Positions 2,655-46,866 of a DNA stretch of 64,000 nt are shown here, one piece after another; the first letter of the stretch is position 1; every line of letters starts with the position of its first letter. This stretch comes from Patescibacteria group bacterium (GTDB lineage: Bacteria; Patescibacteriota; Patescibacteriia; Patescibacteriales; UBA12465): positions 116,459 through 180,458 of the forward strand of contig JBAZBP010000001.1 in NCBI GenBank assembly GCA_041671365.1. The letters run 5' to 3'. The notes beneath the pieces are model-generated. The model was not told the origin of the DNA, did not search any database, and saw only the letters and a program-made list of their open reading frames with translations. A program made the translations under genes and the position numbers.

Positions 2655-4716
2655 TATGACTGAAACTATCAGCAAACTAATTAAAAGGTCCGGTGAAATT
2701 AGTGATTTTGATCAGGATAAGATTGTTACGGCGATTTATAAGGCGGCCCTAGCAACGGGGGTAGATGACCATCACCAGGCTAAAAAATTAGCTAGTCAAG
2801 TAGTTATTCAGCTTAATAAGAAATTTTATAAAAGTAGTATACCGGCCGTAGAAGAGGTCCAGGATATAGTGGAAGAGGTATTGATTGAGAATAAGTTAAT
2901 TAAGATCGCTAAGGCTTATATTTTATATCGCGAGCAACATCGTCAATTACGTGATATTAACACTAAAATAATTGATGATAAATTGATGGAAGATTATTTG
3001 GGTAGAGCGGATTGGCGTTTGAAAGAAAATAGTAATATGAGTTTTTCTGTCCAGGGTTTAAATAATTATATTGCTTCGGCTATTTCCGCTCGTTATTGGT
3101 TAGATAAATTATATCCAGAAAATATTCGCGCCGCCCATATTAATGCTGATTTTCATATTCATGATTTAGGTTTACTCGCCCCTTACTGTTGTGGTTGGGA
3201 TTTAAAAGATTTATTGATTCGCGGTTTTCGGGGAGTGAATGAAAAAGTACAAAGTAATCCGCCTAAGCATTTTCGCAGCGCCCTCGGTCAGATAATTAAT
3301 TTTTTCTATACCATGCAGGGCGAAGCGGCCGGCGCTCAAGCTTTTGCTAATTTTGATACTTATCTGGCGCCATTTATCCGCTATGATAATTTAACCTATA
3401 AAGAAATTAAACAGGGTCTGCAAGAATTCATGTTTAATATTAATGTCCCGACTCGAGTTGGTTTTCAAACCCCGTTTACTAATGTTACTTTAGACGTTAC
3501 TCCCTCTCCTATGATTGGCGAAGAAAATGTTATTATCGGCGGAGAAATCAAATCGGAGAAATATAAAGATTTTCAAGCGGAAATGGATTTATTTAATACC
3601 GCTTTTGCCGAAGTGATGATTGCGGGTGATTCGACCGGGCGGGTTTTTGGCTTTCCTATACCGACTTATTGTATTGATAAAGATTTTGACTGGGACAGAG
3701 AATGCTTAAAGCCGGTTTGGGAAATGACCGCTAAATATGGCATCCCTTATTTTTCTAATTTTGTTAATTCCGACATGAAGCGCGATGATGCCCGATCAAT
3801 GTGTTGCCGCTTAAGGCTGGATAACCGAGAATTACGTAAACGTGGCGGCGGTTTGTTTGGCGCGAACCCACTGACCGGTTCTATTGGCGTCGTGACAGTT
3901 AACTTGCCTCGTATCGGCTATTTGTCCAAGAGCAAAGAAGAATTTAAAAAACGTTTGTTAGTTTTAATGGAATTAGCTAAAGAGAGTTTAGAAATTAAAC
4001 GTAAAATTTTGGAAAAATTTACCGATGACCACCTTTATCCTTATTCTATGTTCTATTTAGATAATATTAAGAAACGTTTTGGTTCTTATTGGCAAAATCA
4101 TTTTTTGACTATTGGCATCAACGGTATGAATGAAGCCGCTTTAAATTTAATGGGTAAAGACTTGTCTACTCCCGAAGGTCGCGCCTTTGCGGCCGAAATT
4201 TTAGATTTCATGCGCGAAAAACTTATGGATTTTCAAAATGAGACTAATAATCTGTATAATTTAGAGGCGACTCCGGCCGAAGGCACCACCTATCGTTTCG
4301 CTAAAAAAGATCAGCAGCTTTATCCGGGTATTATTTGCGCTAATACGGAGGCGGTAAAAACTCAAGGAGCTCCTCCTTATTATACTAATTCTTCACATTT
4401 GCATGTAAATTTTAGTGATGATATTTTCTCCGCTCTTGATTTGCAGGATGATTTACAAATTAAATATACCGGGGGAACGGTTTTGCACGGTTTCTTGGGA
4501 GAAAGACTGCCTAATGGTGATACCGCTAAGAAATTAGTGAAAAAAATTGTTGAAAATTATCGTTTACCATATTTTACGATTACCCCAACTTTCTCGATTT
4601 GTCCTAAGCATGGATATTTATCCGGCGAACATAAGTTTTGTCCGAAATGTGACGAGGAAATTGGTTATAAAGAAAATTTAGCAGAGCTTGAAACCGATAA
4701 AAATGTTAATAAATAA
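2641..4716 (+). CDS. nrdD: Anaerobic ribonucleoside-triphosphate reductase NrdD, large part: ATP-cone, catalytic barrel and Zn-ribbon, ending before the glycyl-radical segment
   Basis: N-terminal ATP-cone (LIKRSGEISDFDQDKIVTAIYKAA). NrdD core motifs are present. The C-terminus carries the Zn site …FSICPKHGYLSGEHKFCPKCDEE… and then stops. Followed by nrdG. Confidence 0.9.
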   Translation: MKKSNMTETISKLIKRSGEISDFDQDKIVTAIYKAALATGVDDHHQAKKLASQVVIQLNKKFYKSSIPAVEEVQDIVEEVLIENKLIKIAKAYILYREQHRQLRDINTKIIDDKLMEDYLGRADWRLKENSNMSFSVQGLNNYIASAISARYWLDKLYPENIRAAHINADFHIHDLGLLAPYCCGWDLKDLLIRGFRGVNEKVQSNPPKHFRSALGQIINFFYTMQGEAAGAQAFANFDTYLAPFIRYDNLTYKEIKQGLQEFMFNINVPTRVGFQTPFTNVTLDVTPSPMIGEENVIIGGEIKSEKYKDFQAEMDLFNTAFAEVMIAGDSTGRVFGFPIPTYCIDKDFDWDRECLKPVWEMTAKYGIPYFSNFVNSDMKRDDARSMCCRLRLDNRELRKRGGGLFGANPLTGSIGVVTVNLPRIGYLSKSKEEFKKRLLVLMELAKESLEIKRKILEKFTDDHLYPYSMFYLDNIKKRFGSYWQNHFLTIGINGMNEAALNLMGKDLSTPEGRAFAAEILDFMREKLMDFQNETNNLYNLEATPAEGTTYRFAKKDQQLYPGIICANTEAVKTQGAPPYYTNSSHLHVNFSDDIFSALDLQDDLQIKYTGGTVLHGFLGERLPNGDTAKKLVKKIVENYRLPYFTITPTFSICPKHGYLSGEHKFCPKCDEEIGYKENLAELETDKNVNK

Positions 4717-4761
4717 AATCGATTTGTAATTTAAATATTTTTAATTTATAATAATAAACAT

Positions 4762-4899
4762 ATGAGTCCGATCCAAACCCAAAGACAAGAATGTGTTGTT
4801 TATAGCCGGGTTGTTGGCTGGCTAACACCGACTAAAAACTGGAACCCGGGAAAAGCTTCTGAATATACTGATCGTAAAACCTATCAAGTTAATAATTAA
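4762..4899 (+). CDS. Free-standing NrdD glycyl-radical peptide (45 aa)
   Basis: MSPIQTQRQECVVYSRVVGWLTPTKNWNPGKASEYTDRKTYQVNN matches the NrdD C-terminal glycyl-radical consensus (…VYSRVxGYLxPVxxWNxGKxxExxxRxxY). It sits 45 nt after the nrdD stop, with in-frame stops between them, and ends 2 nt before nrdG. It is not in the ORF track because it is under 60 aa. Confidence 0.6.
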   Translation: MSPIQTQRQECVVYSRVVGWLTPTKNWNPGKASEYTDRKTYQVNN

Positions 4900-4901
4900 T
4901 T

Positions 4902-5639
4902 TTGTTTAATTTTATGATAATCGGTGGTTTGGAGAAATTAACTCTCCTCGACTACCCCGATCATCTAGCGGCGATTATCTTTACCCAAGGTTGTAATTTC
5001 CGTTGCCACTTTTGTTATAACCCCATGCTTGTCTGGCCCCGACAGGGAACGGACAAAAAAAATAAAAAAGAAAAAGGTTTTTCACCACCATCTGTTAATG
5101 ACCTTTTTCTTTTTTTACGAGAAAGATTTGGCCGTTTAGAGGGAGTAGTTATTACTGGCGGAGAGCCAACCCTGCACTCCGACCTGCCTTCTTTTATTCG
5201 AACCATAAAAGATATGGGTTATTTGGTGAAGTTAGATACCAATGGCACTAATCCGGCAATGTTGAAAAAATTAATTGGGGACAGGCTGATTGATTACATA
5301 GCCATGGATTTAAAGGCCCCTCTTTCTAAATATGAAACCGTAGTCGGGACATCTATTGACTGTAATAATATAAAGAAAAGTGTTAAAATTATAATGACGA
5401 GCGGTCTCCCTTATGAATTTCGGACGACCGTTGTCCCCGGTCTTTTAACTTTAACGGATTTTGCGTCAATGGGCCGAGTAATTAAAGGAGCGAAAAAATG
5501 GTATTTGCAATCATTTAAGTCCGACACCGATTTAGTCGATGTTAAATATCAAAAGCAAGCGGCTTATACTAGCCAAGAAATGCTTAGCTTTGCGGCCATT
5601 GGCAGAAAATATGTCGATCTCTGTGAGCTGCGCGCTTAA
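4902..5639 (+). CDS. nrdG: Anaerobic RNR activating enzyme NrdG (radical SAM)
   Basis: CNFRCHFCYN CxxxCxxC cluster and GGEPT motif. Lies immediately downstream of nrdD. TTG start (ATG alternative at 4914). Confidence 0.85.
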   Translation: MFNFMIIGGLEKLTLLDYPDHLAAIIFTQGCNFRCHFCYNPMLVWPRQGTDKKNKKEKGFSPPSVNDLFLFLRERFGRLEGVVITGGEPTLHSDLPSFIRTIKDMGYLVKLDTNGTNPAMLKKLIGDRLIDYIAMDLKAPLSKYETVVGTSIDCNNIKKSVKIIMTSGLPYEFRTTVVPGLLTLTDFASMGRVIKGAKKWYLQSFKSDTDLVDVKYQKQAAYTSQEMLSFAAIGRKYVDLCELRA

Positions 5640-30327: not shown

Positions 30328-30354
30328 TTAGCACTCTCTTGACTTGAGTGCTAA
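30328..30354 (+). promoter_or_regulatory. CIRCE operator (HrcA binding site) upstream of hrcA
   Basis: TTAGCACTC-N9-GAGTGCTAA perfect inverted repeat. Confidence 0.85.
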
Positions 30355-30367
30355 TTTCGTTTATAAT
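30339..30367 (+). promoter_or_regulatory. Sigma70-like promoter overlapping the CIRCE element
   Basis: TTGACT, 17 nt, TATAAT. Confidence 0.5.
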
Positions 30368-30414: not shown

Positions 30415-31107
30415 ATGATTTCTGAACGTAAAAAATTTTTATTATTTACCCTTATTAAAGAATATGTTAAAACTGCTCAGCCGGTTTCTTCGGGCGGGCT
30501 GGTTGATAAATATAAATTAGATGTTTCTCCGGCGACGGTACGCAACGAGATGATGGAACTGGAGGATGAGGGTTATATTTATCAGCCTCATACTTCCGCC
30601 GGACGCGTTCCCACTGAAATTGCTTATGAATTATTTTTAATCGATTTAAAAGAAAACCATAAAAACAAAGAATTAAAAGAGCTAGAGTTGAAAAATTTAG
30701 AGCGTATATTTAAACGCGAGGAAGCAGCCTACAAACAGACAGCCAAGACAATTGCTGAATTATCCAGCGCCGCTGTTTTTTGGGCCTTCCATAAAAATGA
30801 TTTATATTATACCGGTTTGGCTAATTTATTTGCTCATCCGGAATTTAAACAGGTTGATGCTGTTTGCGATGTTTCCGAAGTGATTGATCGTTTAGACGAA
30901 ATTATCGATGATGTTTTTGAAAAATTGGTGGACGGCCAGCAAGTTTTAGTTGGTACTAAAAATCCTTTTGGAAATTTTTTAAGTACAGTTTTAGTTAAAT
31001 ATAAAAATAATAATCAGAGCGCTATTTTTGGAATTATCGGACCGATGCGCATGGATTATGGTCATAATTTAGCGCTGGTGGAGTTTATTAAAAATAAATT
31101 TGAATAA
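30415..31107 (+). CDS. hrcA: Heat-inducible transcription repressor HrcA (short form)
   Basis: N-terminal wHTH …LLFTLIKEYVKTAQPVSSGGLVDKYKLDVSPATVRNEMMELEDEGYIYQPHTSAGRVPT… Preceded by a CIRCE element. Confidence 0.8.
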   Translation: MISERKKFLLFTLIKEYVKTAQPVSSGGLVDKYKLDVSPATVRNEMMELEDEGYIYQPHTSAGRVPTEIAYELFLIDLKENHKNKELKELELKNLERIFKREEAAYKQTAKTIAELSSAAVFWAFHKNDLYYTGLANLFAHPEFKQVDAVCDVSEVIDRLDEIIDDVFEKLVDGQQVLVGTKNPFGNFLSTVLVKYKNNNQSAIFGIIGPMRMDYGHNLALVEFIKNKFE

Positions 31108-31115
31108 GTATTCTT

Positions 31116-31733
31116 ATGAATAAGTTAAAAAAAGGAATCTATCGTCATTATAAAGGAGGCGAATACCGGATTGTCGGAGAAGCGCGATCGACGGTTGATG
31201 ACCAGGAAAAAATGGTAGTTTATGAAAGCCTTAAGGATAGTCAAATTTGGCTTCGTTCCGTTCAGGAATTTTTAAGCGAAGTAGAAGTGGCCGGAGAAAA
31301 AAAACCGCGCTTTGAATGGCTGCGAGAAGAGGAAATGGCTGACTGGGAGTCTAAATATAAAAGAGCTTTGGCCGATTATCATAATTTACTTAAGCAGACT
31401 ACTCGCGAAAAACAAGATTTTATTAAATATGCTTTAACTGATATTTTACAAGATATCTTACCAATTTATGATCATTTAAAAATGTCTTTATCCGGTTTAA
31501 GCGAAGAGGAGGCCGAGAATGCTTGGGTGGTAGGAGTTAAACATGTTTTAAAACAATTTAAAGAAGTTTTGGCTACGCGTGGGGTTGAAGAAATAATGAC
31601 CATTGGCGTTAAGTTTGACCATAATACCATGGAGGCATTAGACGGTACTGGTGAAAATATTAAGCAAGAAGTGTTGCCTGGTTATAAATTGAATGGTCGA
31701 GTTATTCGTCCGGCTAAAGTTATAGTAGAATAA
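31116..31733 (+). CDS. grpE: GrpE nucleotide-exchange factor with N-terminal DUF1653 domain (fusion)
   Basis: Residues 1-70, GIYRHYKGGEYRIVGEARSTVDDQEKMVVYESLKDSQIWLRSVQEFLSEVEVAGEKKPRFEWL, fit the DUF1653 pattern. The C-terminal …DILPIYDHLKMSL…GVKFDHNTMEAL…GYKLNGRVIRPAKVIV is the GrpE four-helix bundle plus beta domain. Located between hrcA and dnaK. Confidence 0.8.
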   Translation: MNKLKKGIYRHYKGGEYRIVGEARSTVDDQEKMVVYESLKDSQIWLRSVQEFLSEVEVAGEKKPRFEWLREEEMADWESKYKRALADYHNLLKQTTREKQDFIKYALTDILQDILPIYDHLKMSLSGLSEEEAENAWVVGVKHVLKQFKEVLATRGVEEIMTIGVKFDHNTMEALDGTGENIKQEVLPGYKLNGRVIRPAKVIVE

Positions 31734-31821: not shown

Positions 31822-32256
31822 ATGTCACTTATAAAATGGACCCCATTTTTTTCGGAAATAGACGACTTGGAAAAAAGCATGGAATCTATGTTGCCCAGTC
31901 TTCATGGCAATCAGTTTGGTTTTACGCCCGCTGTTGATATGTACGAAGATAAAAACAATATTATTATTGAAACTCAGCTGGGAGGCATTGATCCGGAAAA
32001 AGTTGATATTTCTATCGAAAATAATACTTTGTCGATTAAAGGTGAAAGCGAGAAGAAAAGTGAAGTTGATGAAAAGAATTATTATCGTAAAGAAATTCGT
32101 CGCGGCTCTTTTTATCGGACCATTCCTTTGCCGATAAAGGTTGACGGCGCTCAAGCCTCGGCTGTTAATGAGGACGGTATTTTAAAAATTACCGTGCCCA
32201 AAGCTCCGGAGACAAAAACTCAAACAATTAAAATTCAAAATAAAAATAAAAATTAA
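31822..32256 (+). CDS. Small heat shock protein, Hsp20/alpha-crystallin family
   Basis: ACD core …PAVDMYEDKNNIIIETQLGGIDPEKVDISIENNTLSIKGE…GILKITVPK. Confidence 0.85.
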   Translation: MSLIKWTPFFSEIDDLEKSMESMLPSLHGNQFGFTPAVDMYEDKNNIIIETQLGGIDPEKVDISIENNTLSIKGESEKKSEVDEKNYYRKEIRRGSFYRTIPLPIKVDGAQASAVNEDGILKITVPKAPETKTQTIKIQNKNKN

Positions 32257-32274
32257 ATTATAAATAAAAACATT

Positions 32275-34206
32275 ATGTCAAAAATTTTAGGAATTGATTT
32301 AGGAACAACCAACTCGGCCATGGCCATCATGGAGGGCGGCGTACCAAAAATTATCGAAAATATCGAAGGTAACCGTACCACTCCGTCCGTCGTGGCAATA
32401 TCTAAAAATGGTGAACGAATTGTTGGTTCGGCCGCCAAACGCCAGGCCGTGATTAATCCGGAAAATACGGTTTATGCGGTTAAACGTTTAATCGGCCGTC
32501 ATTTCGGTGAAGACGAAGTACAGCGAGATCTCAAATCCGTGCCTTATAAAATTTTGCAGGCCGGAGAAGGCGTGAAAGTAAAAATGGGCGATAAAGATTA
32601 TAGTCCGCAGGAAATTTCGGCCATGATTTTATCTAAATTAAAAGCGGATGCCGAAGTTAAATTGGGTGAAAAAATTACGGAAGCGATTATTACTGTCCCG
32701 GCCTATTTTAACGATTCGCAACGTCAGGCGACTAAAGATGCGGGCGCTATTGCCGGGCTGGATGTTAAACGGATTATTAACGAACCGACGGCCGCGGCTC
32801 TAGCTTATGGTTTTGATAAAAAACAGGGTCAAAAAATTGTAGTTTATGATTTAGGCGGCGGGACTTTTGATGTTTCGGTTTTGGATATTTCGGCTGATAC
32901 CGTCGAAGTTAAAGCGACTAATGGCGATACGCATTTAGGCGGCGAAGATTTTGATCAACGAATTATTACTTGGATTATTGAAGAATTTAAAAAAGACCAG
33001 GGTCTGGATTTGTCTAAAGACACCTTAGCTTTACAGCGAATTAAGGAATCGGCCGAAAAAGCCAAAATTGAATTATCTACGGCACAAGAAACAGAAATTA
33101 ATCAGCCATTTATTTCTACCGATGCTAACGGTCCGAAGCATTTAGTAATGAAGCTTTCTCGGGCGAAATTAGAGGCATTAATCGGAGATTTAGTTGAGAA
33201 AACTATTGAACCGTGCAAAAAAGCTTTAGCTGATTCCGGTTTTAAATTGGCGGATATTAATGAAGTCCTGATGGTTGGCGGTATGACTCGTATGCCCCTA
33301 GTTCTGCAGAAAGTAAAAGATTTCTTTGGTAAAGAACCGAATTTAAGTGTTAATCCGGATGAAGTGGTCGCTCTAGGAGCCGCCGTTCAGGCCGGAGTCC
33401 TTCAGGGAGACGTTAAGGACGTTTTATTATTAGATGTTACCCCCCTAACTTTAGGAATTGAAACGATGGGATCGGTGGCCACCCCTTTAATAGAGAGAAA
33501 TACAACCATTCCGACCTCCAAGTCACAGGTTTTTTCGACGGCGGCCGATGGTCAAACTGCGGTTGATATTCATATTGTTCAAGGCGAACGTCCGATGGCC
33601 GGCGACAATAAAACTTTGGGCCGGTTTATGTTAGACGGTATTCCGGCGGCACCGCGCGGTATTCCGCAAGTTGAAGTTAAATTCGATATTGATGCTAACG
33701 GTATTTTAAATGTTTCGGCGACCGATAAAGCGACCGGTAAACAACAAAAAATTACGATCACTTCTTCTTCCGGCTTATCGAAAGAAGAAATTGAAAAAAT
33801 GAAGAAAGAGGCGGAGCTGCACGCCGAAGAAGACAAGAAAAAGAAAGAGGAGGCGGAAGTCAAAAATTCAGCCGATGCAGTTTTATTTACGATGGACAAA
33901 ATGTTAAAAGAATCCGGCGACAAAATGAAACCGGAAGATAAAAAAGACATGGAGGATAAGGCCGCCGCGCTTAAAAAAGCTAAGGAAGCCGGCGATTTAG
34001 AGGACATAAAAAAGAAAATGGAGGAATTAAATACGGTGGCTCAGAAAATAGGAGCGGCGATGTATCAACAGCCGGGAGCAAACGCCTCCGAAGCGGGAGC
34101 AACCGGAAACATGGGGGCCGATCAAGCCGACGCCAACGCCGGTACCGGATCGAGCAACAAAAAAGATGATAATGTGGTCGAGGGAGAAGTTGAAGAAAAG
34201 AAGTAG
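32275..34206 (+). CDS. dnaK: Chaperone DnaK (Hsp70)
   Basis: [18 protein letters not shown] and [13 protein letters not shown] signatures. Confidence 0.97.
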
Positions 34207-34237: not shown

Positions 34238-35320
34238 ATGTCCAAAGATTACTATGATATTTTAGGCGTTTCTAAAAGCGCCACGCCCGATGAAATAAAA
34301 ACAGCTTTTCGAAAAAAGGCCCACGAATATCATCCGGACAAAGGTGGTAATGCCGAAAAATTTAAAGAGATTAATGAAGCTAATCAGGTTTTGGGTAATC
34401 CAGAAAAAAGAAAGCAATATGACCAGTTTGGTTCTGCTTTTCAGAATGGCCAGGCCGGCGGCGGTTTTAGTGGTGGTGGATTTTCCGGATTCCAGAATGG
34501 CGGCGGATTTAATATGGACTTTGAAGATTTGGGTGATATGTTCGGCGGTTTTGGCGATATTTTTGGTTTTGGCGGCGGAAAACAAAATACTAAACGTCAA
34601 ACCCGCGGCCATGATTTAGAGATGAATGTATCTTTGGATTTTATGGATGCAGTTTCTGGAACGGAAAAAGAAATTAGTTTTTCTAAAAATATTGTTTGTA
34701 GTCGCTGCCAGGCCAGCGGTGCGGAACCCGGATCTAAAATCGAAATTTGTAAAAATTGTAACGGTTCCGGTCGAGTAACGCGTTTACAGCGAACAATTCT
34801 AGGCAATATTCAGACGCAATCAGTTTGCACTTATTGCGACGGTGAAGGGAAAACGTATGATAAAAAATGTTCGAGATGCGAAGGAACGGGAGTACATCGC
34901 GAACAAGTTAAAATTAAAGTTCGCGTGCCGGCCGGAATTAATGATGGAGAATCTATTAGATTAAGCGGCCAAGGCGAAGCCGGACAAAAGGGGTCTGAGG
35001 CCGGTGATTTATATTTGCGTATCAAGTTACAAGCACACCGGAAATTTAAGCGTCACGGTTATGATATTAATACGGAAGAGATTATTAATATTAGTCAGGC
35101 GATTTTAGGCGATAAAATTGAGATTGAAACGGTGCATGGTCCGGTAAAATTAAAAATTCCCGAAGGCACGCAATCCGGGACAATATTTAAGCTTAAGGGA
35201 AAGGGGATGGTTAAATTACACAGTCAAGGAACGGGCGATCAATTTACTAAAATAATCGTTAAAATTCCGATTGGATTGAATAAGAAACAGAAGCAATTAT
35301 TAGCCGAGCTTAATTTATAG
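34238..35320 (+). CDS. dnaJ: Co-chaperone DnaJ
   Basis: J-domain with HPD (EYHPDKG). G/F-rich region. Four CxxCxGxG zinc-finger repeats. Confidence 0.95.
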   Translation: MSKDYYDILGVSKSATPDEIKTAFRKKAHEYHPDKGGNAEKFKEINEANQVLGNPEKRKQYDQFGSAFQNGQAGGGFSGGGFSGFQNGGGFNMDFEDLGDMFGGFGDIFGFGGGKQNTKRQTRGHDLEMNVSLDFMDAVSGTEKEISFSKNIVCSRCQASGAEPGSKIEICKNCNGSGRVTRLQRTILGNIQTQSVCTYCDGEGKTYDKKCSRCEGTGVHREQVKIKVRVPAGINDGESIRLSGQGEAGQKGSEAGDLYLRIKLQAHRKFKRHGYDINTEEIINISQAILGDKIEIETVHGPVKLKIPEGTQSGTIFKLKGKGMVKLHSQGTGDQFTKIIVKIPIGLNKKQKQLLAELNL

Positions 35321-44841: not shown

Positions 44842-44868
44842 TTAGCACTCGTCTTTATTGAGTGCTAA
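44842..44868 (+). promoter_or_regulatory. CIRCE operator upstream of groES
   Basis: TTAGCACTC-N9-GAGTGCTAA perfect inverted repeat, 10 nt downstream of the -10 element. Confidence 0.85.
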
Positions 44869-44895
44869 TAATAATTTATTTAATATTAGAAAAAA

Positions 44896-46866
<1,971 letters not shown>

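Follow-up and report, generated by a model that had tools for sequence, protein, structure and literature searches.

GrpE, the nucleotide exchange factor of the Hsp70 chaperone DnaK, is usually regarded as one fixed architecture in which a tail, a stalk, a helical bundle and a beta domain follow one another. In Escherichia coli the GrpE tails reach the DnaK substrate-binding domain (SBD), bind its peptide groove weakly via 17-IIM-19 and help substrate release, an effect that weakens once the stalk melts (PMC12915176). Debate continues on whether the tail drives the release of substrate from DnaK, and how (PMC12915176, PMC12987570), and a 2025 review treats the role of the tail as unsettled while folded N-terminal domains go unmentioned in it (PMC12987570). 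Here we describe the grpE gene of a 64-kb stretch of Patescibacteria DNA (contig JBAZBP010000001.1; the whole stretch is called the window), whose 205-aa product carries a folded domain of the family DUF1653 in front of GrpE. The gene almost certainly encodes a functional fused GrpE, and DUF1653 very probably replaces the disordered tail rather than the helix that follows it. Residue numbers refer to the 205-aa fusion protein throughout.

The fused domain and the part of GrpE it replaces

The fused gene and its sub-parts, all on the + strand, are as follows.
31116..31733, +: DUF1653-GrpE fused gene, 205 aa plus stop (ORF calling, Pfam, homologue search)
31134..31316, +: DUF1653 domain, residues 7-67, a small all-beta SH3-like barrel (Pfam, AF2, Foldseek)
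31317..31343, +: acidic linker, residues 68-76 (WLREEEMAD), the Nudix insertion point in relatives (alignment, AF2)
31344..31436, +: retained GrpE stalk helix, residues 77-107, about E. coli 58-88 (AF2, alignments)
31437..31580, +: GrpE four-helix-bundle helices, residues 108-155 (AF2, Foldseek, alignment)
31581..31730, +: GrpE beta-sheet domain, residues 156-205, the part that binds the DnaK nucleotide-binding domain (AF2, Foldseek, alignment)

The open reading frame (ORF) runs from an ATG to a TAA over 205 codons with zero in-frame stops, which bears out the single ORF proposed in a preliminary description of this DNA, and its product is identical to the public NCBI protein MFA6994920.1, 'MAG: nucleotide exchange factor GrpE [Patescibacteria group bacterium]', from a 529,534-bp contig of a metagenome-assembled genome (MAG). 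Both domains named in that description were recovered well above the Pfam cut-offs: PF07866 (DUF1653) matches residues 7-67 over profile positions 1-61 of 62 with 71.2 bits against a cut-off of 23.5 (E=9.3e-20), and PF01025 (GrpE) matches residues 71-204 over profile positions 24-163 of 165 with 116.4 bits against a cut-off of 25.8 (E=1.4e-33). The N-terminal assignment is further borne out by the family signature and by the fold of 3BE3 (see below), and the motifs quoted for the protein, IYRHYKGGEYRIVG, MVVYESL and PRFEWL, are all present in it. All 25 listed NCBIfam GrpE models score below their equivalog cut-offs, the best being NF010738 with 84.5 vs 137 bits, and despite these scores NCBI still names the fusion protein GrpE.

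The AlphaFold2 (AF2) model of the full-length protein has a predicted local distance difference test (pLDDT) of 83 and places beta strands at residues 8-70, helices at 77-92, 96-125 and 136-154 and a beta domain at 157-204; it matches the GrpE structures 9BLS, 1DKG, 4ANI, 3A6M and 8GB3 with a Foldseek probability of 1.0. Modelled alone, DUF1653 reaches a pLDDT of 94.4 (AF2) and matches 3BE3, the only solved member of the family, with a Foldseek E-value of 4.9e-5 and TM scores of 0.84 (query) and 0.79 (target). The two superpose with a root-mean-square deviation of 2.4 A over 74 columns, and the corresponding sequence match has E=2.7e-4.

The fusion is widely kept. A homologue search of 5.8 billion proteins gave 1057 matches, and among the best 120 of these (60-100% identity), which were examined for domains, all 120 contain both DUF1653 and GrpE according to Pfam. 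A locus survey of one-genome-per-species contigs found at least 585 relatives; counts given here cover the best 80 loci, in 67 of which the GrpE ORF includes DUF1653. Since the same single ORF is present in 120/120 homologues and 67/80 loci, the fusion is not an artefact, and a continuous fused ORF occurs in hundreds of independent assemblies held by NCBI, JGI, ENA and Logan. Most relatives are labelled either Patescibacteria group or Candidatus Falkowbacteria, the latter being a phylum of the Parcubacteria group. Dozens of third-party MAGs labelled 'uncultured Gammaproteobacteria' (L001, L002, L010, L012 and L018 among others) carry the same operon and fusion, as do single 'Bacillota' and 'Planctomycetota' MAGs with a Patescibacteria-type operon (the loci list includes L042 and L051), and these three labels look wrong. 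Across 35 aligned fusions the DUF1653 part has nine invariant positions (G7, Y9, G14, Y17, Y36, W45, R47, R65 and F66), and mean pairwise identity is 0.46 in the linker region (residues 69-78) and 0.75 in the stalk.

The preliminary description held that DUF1653 takes the place of both the tail and the long paired helix of GrpE and is joined directly to the four-helix bundle, of which only the replacement of the tail stands. The GrpE profile match begins at PF01025 position 24 of 165, the match to 1DKG pairs residues 55-204 with chain positions 36-192, and BLASTP places window residues 83-107 on E. coli 64-88, with 29% identity over residues 55-204; the coordinates of the E. coli GrpE sequence used for BLASTP agree with the 1DKG match. 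From the profile start, the E. coli alignment and the AF2 helix beginning at residue 77 it follows that about 30 stalk residues are retained, so that the linker and this stalk intervene between DUF1653 and the bundle. The stalk measures about 30-36 residues in the window protein vs about 48 in E. coli, i.e. about 18 fewer. In four plain members of the same clade (L050, L057, L072 and L079) a tail of about 35 aa, acidic and of low complexity, leads into the same short stalk, '...EDDYKEKYLRALADYQN...', and because they share this stalk behind an acidic tail, DUF1653 stands for the tail and not for the helix; the short stalk itself is a feature of the lineage. A disordered N-terminal tail with a hydrophobic motif for the DnaK SBD, such as E. 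coli 17-IIM-19, is absent from the window protein, in which residues 1-70 form a folded beta domain. Nor does any tail precede its DUF1653, where an acidic stretch of 20-30 aa persists in some relatives.

Operon, alternative heads and DUF1653 elsewhere

The fused gene lies in the operon hrcA-grpE-hsp20-dnaK-dnaJ, which confirms its earlier placement in an Hsp70 operon, with a controlling inverted repeat of chaperone expression (CIRCE) in front. Its elements besides grpE are listed here.
30328..30354, +: CIRCE operator (HrcA site), perfect TTAGCACTC-N9-GAGTGCTAA, upstream of hrcA (motif scan)
30339..30367, +: sigma-70-like promoter, TTGACT-17-TATAAT, 11/12, overlapping CIRCE (consensus match)
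30415..31107, +: hrcA, short form, 230 aa (PF01628 E=2.9e-16; HrcA winged-helix match weak)
31822..32256, +: hsp20 (alpha-crystallin family), between grpE and dnaK (Pfam)
32275..34206, +: dnaK (Hsp70), the partner of GrpE (PF00012 E=4e-256)
34238..35320, +: dnaJ (ORF calling, Pfam)

The CIRCE copy has 0 mismatches, with 0 expected (100 shuffles), and together with the operon position it identifies the fusion gene as the GrpE of the HrcA heat-shock regulon in a Falkowbacteria-like Patescibacteria genome. The sigma-70-like site is called solely by consensus, and sites of this kind are no more numerous in the region than chance predicts. The grpE ATG lies 9 bp downstream of the hrcA stop, and no terminator-like site was found between grpE and hsp20. 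Upstream hrcA is present at 78 of the 80 related loci, the remaining two having no upstream sequence, hsp20 between grpE and dnaK is likewise kept in 78/80, and the order PBP2-hrcA-grpE-hsp20-dnaK-dnaJ-tatD is conserved at every locus long enough to show it in full. By tblastn, neither a second GrpE nor a free DUF1653 was found in the 64-kb window, and from the operon position we infer that the fusion is the sole GrpE of the genome.

A second perfect CIRCE at 44842-44868 directly precedes groES (44858-45187) and groEL (45205-46866), and since each chaperone operon is preceded by a perfect copy, the HrcA regulon spans both. The window hrcA matches the HrcA C-terminal Pfam domain only from profile position 78 on; the HrcA adjoining the distant fusion P0153 is similarly short with 228 aa, and HrcA seems to be truncated in Patescibacteria.

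DUF1653 is one of several folded heads on GrpE in this lineage. At the orthologous gene slot of the 80 loci we found seven DUF1653-Nudix-GrpE proteins of about 343 aa, in six of which the Nudix box is intact under the strict pattern (L076 fails), one degenerate-Nudix-DUF1653-GrpE (L032, matching P0121), five Nudix-GrpE, four degenerate-Nudix-GrpE and four plain GrpE. The loci with alternative heads are L052, L060, L062, L064, L070, L076 and L080 (ORFs at about 4350-5560 in each), further L054-L056, L059 and L063, and L032; alternative-head proteins include P0126, P0131, P0144-P0146, P0156 and P0205. The window protein itself has no Pfam NUDIX match and no Nudix box (GX5EX7REUXEEXGU, PF00293). 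There is also no Nudix gene near grpE in the 64-kb window, the weak tblastn match at 496-684 (E=0.008) lying inside ftsA; ftsA (partial, 52-753) and ftsZ (776-1969) stand at the start of the window.

Among the 150 nearest representatives at 50% identity, 8 are DUF1653-GrpE and 15 are Nudix-GrpE with an intact Nudix box, 18 more GrpEs have N-termini of more than 90 residues and 109 are plain. Pfam NUDIX was detected in 25 of 35 GrpEs with long N-termini and HD in one, the more distant relative P0156; P0205 carries two Nudix domains. Triple fusions of the type DUF1653-Nudix-GrpE form at least 18 clusters at 90% identity and occur at seven species loci, with the Nudix domain inserted within the linker between DUF1653 and stalk, and one of them is named 'GrpE/8-oxo-dGTP pyrophosphatase MutT' by JGI. 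Some Nudix-GrpE proteins begin with 'MEELK(R/K)(H/Y)PE' and, judged by this sequence, look like triple fusions that have lost their DUF1653. In a neighbour-joining tree of the GrpE core (about 135 residues, no support values, used only for the interleaving of architectures), DUF1653-GrpE forms the background and the other head types are scattered over it, which speaks for repeated gain and loss. Nucleotide-hydrolase domains have a hot spot at the GrpE N-terminus in this lineage. The Nudix found in the fusions is of a minimal MutT-like type, with T. thermophilus Ndx1, NudI and MutT as its best matches; as these are generic and all below family cut-offs, no substrate class could be assigned. Its free homologues have a genomic context unrelated to grpE at the loci examined.

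Outside GrpE, DUF1653 meets Nudix again. The search with DUF1653 plus Nudix of a triple fusion also returned P0306, a NUDIX_4 MutT-like protein with a C-terminal DUF1653 and no GrpE, and this architecture comprises about 40 clusters at 90% identity (P0306, P0311-P0347; about 205 aa, 51-77% identity) from Clostridia-like genomes. They adjoin free homologues annotated as (deoxy)nucleoside triphosphate pyrophosphohydrolases from Oscillospiraceae/Clostridiales. The loci examined are L088-L090 (gene at 5001-5621 in L089 and L090), and one such gene lies between dnaX-ybaB-recR and a DNA-alkylation-repair gene. The two settings differ in phylum, Nudix subfamily and domain order, and this independent joining constitutes a classical fusion-based hint of a functional link; DUF1653 is probably tied functionally to Nudix. 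It looks like a portable SH3-like module associated with Nudix enzymes that has been mounted on the GrpE stalk.

The family signature G-YRHYKG-xY, VVY, W-RP, PRF is common to the aligned fused domains and to seven stand-alone plasmid and phage proteins, the window protein having W-RS where the family has W-RP. A sub-clade of the fusions reads YLCHTG (e.g. P0029, P0038, P0041, P0044, P0052, P0091, P0100, P0109 and P0110, also L052) and often adds the acidic N-terminal extension of 20-30 aa, and P0139 has a strongly degenerate DUF1653 without W45, R47 and PRF. Stand-alone DUF1653 is common on plasmids and large phages, with loci such as L081 (Legionella plasmid, 4001-4213), L085 (Eleftheria plasmid), L086 and L087 (Vibrio phage Va2 and Bacillus phage phi3Ts). 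The neighbours comprise GNAT acetyltransferases in two cases, GIY-YIG and a phage nucleotide-metabolism region; in both phages the gene has nucleotide-metabolism genes (dUTPase; NrdI and ribonucleotide reductase) no more than about 3 kb away. PHROGs annotates the family only as 'unknown function'. Our literature search returned a single mention of DUF1653, in a proteomics table, none under PF07866, and no paper on DUF1653-GrpE, Nudix-GrpE or any folded N-terminal domain of GrpE, while the fusion architecture is visible in public databases under the plain name GrpE.

Possible roles of the head

Through the fusion DUF1653 may reasonably be placed in the Hsp70 cycle, as the preliminary description proposed, and its tie to Nudix is equally strong. 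The reading we tentatively prefer is that of a head which senses a ligand or partner and modulates the DnaK cycle. The two DUF1653 copies of a GrpE dimer would form a head on the stalk tip, attached via the linker of about 9 residues, at the place from which E. coli tails reach the DnaK SBD. There the head would act instead of a pseudo-substrate tail: most likely it would bind a nucleotide-type metabolite or a partner protein, and so may tune the timing of GrpE-driven nucleotide and substrate release from DnaK. DUF1653 might then be a portable binding module working with Nudix-type nucleotide hydrolases, its ligand probably being of the same nucleotide-type class as is hydrolysed by the Nudix heads.

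Several observations weigh against such a sensing head. The plain GrpEs nested in the clade imply that a head is dispensable for basic function, and DUF1653 is less conserved than the GrpE core, with a mean pairwise identity of 0.53 compared to 0.74. YLCHTG replaces YRHYKG in about 30% of the aligned fusions, hence RHYK is not essential in the GrpE setting. No column of DnaK co-varies with the presence of DUF1653, the best p-value being 0.006 against a Bonferroni threshold of 7e-5 in a weak test of 66 loci (55 with and 11 without the domain). The orientation of the two domains is of low confidence in the full-length AF2 model, with a predicted template modelling score (pTM) of 0.44. Apart from 3BE3, the Foldseek neighbours of DUF1653 are generic SH3-like barrels (EF-P/eIF5A domain I, Tudor, CarD, R67 DHFR) at E>0.1 and therefore uninformative on function; the stand-alone plasmid and phage genes have varied neighbours with no chaperone link at the loci examined, and a ligand, partner or activity is reported for no DUF1653.

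Somewhat unlikely, in our view, is a purely structural head, in which the DUF1653 pair dimerises or packs on the stalk tip, stabilises the short coiled coil and shifts the thermosensor and/or presses on the DnaK SBD, with neither a ligand nor a link to Nudix. A cap would suit the exact placement of the domain at the tail exit, where the connecting linker is very short and conserved, and also a stalk that falls about 18 residues short of the E. coli one and the presence of two chains in the 3BE3 crystal; plain relatives, however, manage with the same short stalk and need none. Nudix domains that have lost catalysis still occupy the same position, suggesting that bulk or shape may outweigh chemistry, and the loss of RHYK is tolerated in a sub-clade, but the fused domain keeps most of the signature residues of its stand-alone relatives, which points to an ancestral binding function and not to a spacer. 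A structural head would furthermore leave the recurrent pairing with Nudix, also outside GrpE, unexplained, and the absence of DnaK co-variation counts against it as well.

A more far-reaching version of the sensing head, which we consider distinctly unlikely, would turn the Patescibacteria GrpE N-terminus into a site where heads that handle nucleotides (Nudix, HD and DUF1653) dock and couple the Hsp70 cycle to the sensing or destruction of nucleotides, with DUF1653 as a hitherto unrecognised nucleotide-ligand binding or regulatory domain that partners Nudix. Candidate signals or contaminants for such coupled heads would be ApnA alarmones, oxidised nucleotides or ADP itself.

It is rather improbable that the heads are passengers, i.e. 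small stress genes for DUF1653, Nudix and HD welded 5' of grpE for co-expression under CIRCE/HrcA and for the stability of a dimeric scaffold, each part working independently and the chaperone cycle being unaffected. The N-terminus does take up several unrelated domains in either order and loses them again, the operon is heat-shock controlled by CIRCE, Nudix 'house-cleaning' enzymes are plausible stress genes, and DnaK does not co-vary with the domain. Yet the fusions are always found at the GrpE N-terminus and never on hrcA, hsp20, dnaK or dnaJ of the operon, it is specifically a nucleotide exchange factor that two different phosphohydrolase folds (Nudix and HD) have joined, Nudix domains persist even when degenerate, and the linker is short and conserved and not long and floppy. 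Last, the merging of a DUF1653 gene with grpE through sequencing or assembly error or a missed stop is extremely improbable, as two-gene, missed-stop, frameshift and assembly-error models are excluded by the stop-free ORF and its recurrence among homologues, loci and independent assemblies, and nothing supports them, the 9 bp that separate the ATG from the hrcA stop fitting any gene model.

The locus matters in several respects. Within one lineage GrpE comes headless, with DUF1653, with Nudix or with both, a ready-made series of natural variants for probing what the N-terminus contributes, and DUF1653, so far a family with a crystal structure and no function, gains its first concrete functional associations, with Nudix in two unrelated settings and with a nucleotide exchange factor. 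Should active Nudix or HD domains on an Hsp70 exchange factor be mechanistically coupled to it, they would form a new link between chaperones and nucleotide metabolism in minimal genomes, and if the nucleotide-coupling reading were true, this GrpE would, as an exchange factor, read or edit the pool of nucleotides.

Comparison with known systems

Canonical GrpE from E. coli (1DKG), G. kaustophilus (4ANI), T. thermophilus (3A6M) and M. tuberculosis (8GB3) resembles the window protein in its Pfam domain and in the fold of stalk, bundle and beta domain, and it is likewise encoded in an hrcA-grpE-dnaK-dnaJ operon with CIRCE. E. coli F86 and R183, which we take to be DnaK-contact residues from the mutational literature, align with Y105 and R198 of the window protein. 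The differences lie in the disordered tail of canonical GrpE, where the window protein has a folded DUF1653 barrel and no IIM-like SBD motif, in the stalk (about 48 residues in E. coli, about 30 here) and in the hsp20 gene that the window operon adds between grpE and dnaK.

With stand-alone DUF1653, represented by 3BE3 from Bordetella bronchiseptica and by the plasmid and phage proteins, the window domain has the fold and the signature in common; these are free proteins of about 70 aa, whereas the window DUF1653 is a domain of a larger protein, the 'HSETxE' stretch of the family is only weakly kept in the fusions, and one sub-clade of them lacks RHYK. In the Clostridia-like Nudix-DUF1653 proteins the domain is a covalent accessory module, in parallel to the DUF1653-Nudix-GrpE triple fusions, but there is no GrpE, DUF1653 is C-terminal, the Nudix belongs to the NUDIX_4/MutT-like subfamily, and the neighbourhood is one of replication and repair (dnaX-ybaB-recR, DNA alkylation repair).

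N-terminal elements of exchange factors that act on substrate release or targeting and not on nucleotide exchange are familiar from the 'release domain' of Fes1/HspBP1 and from the ubiquitin-like domain of BAG-1. The concept is the same, but these factors are eukaryotic and belong to unrelated folds and families, so that no homology is implied. Also close to the window protein are the sister proteins Nudix-GrpE, DUF1653-Nudix-GrpE and HD-GrpE (L052-L064, P0126, P0156, P0205), of which the loci L052-L064 are established at the orthologous gene slot. Unlike these sisters the window protein lacks both Nudix and HD, and it shares with them the short stalk, the GrpE core and a folded head in place of the tail.

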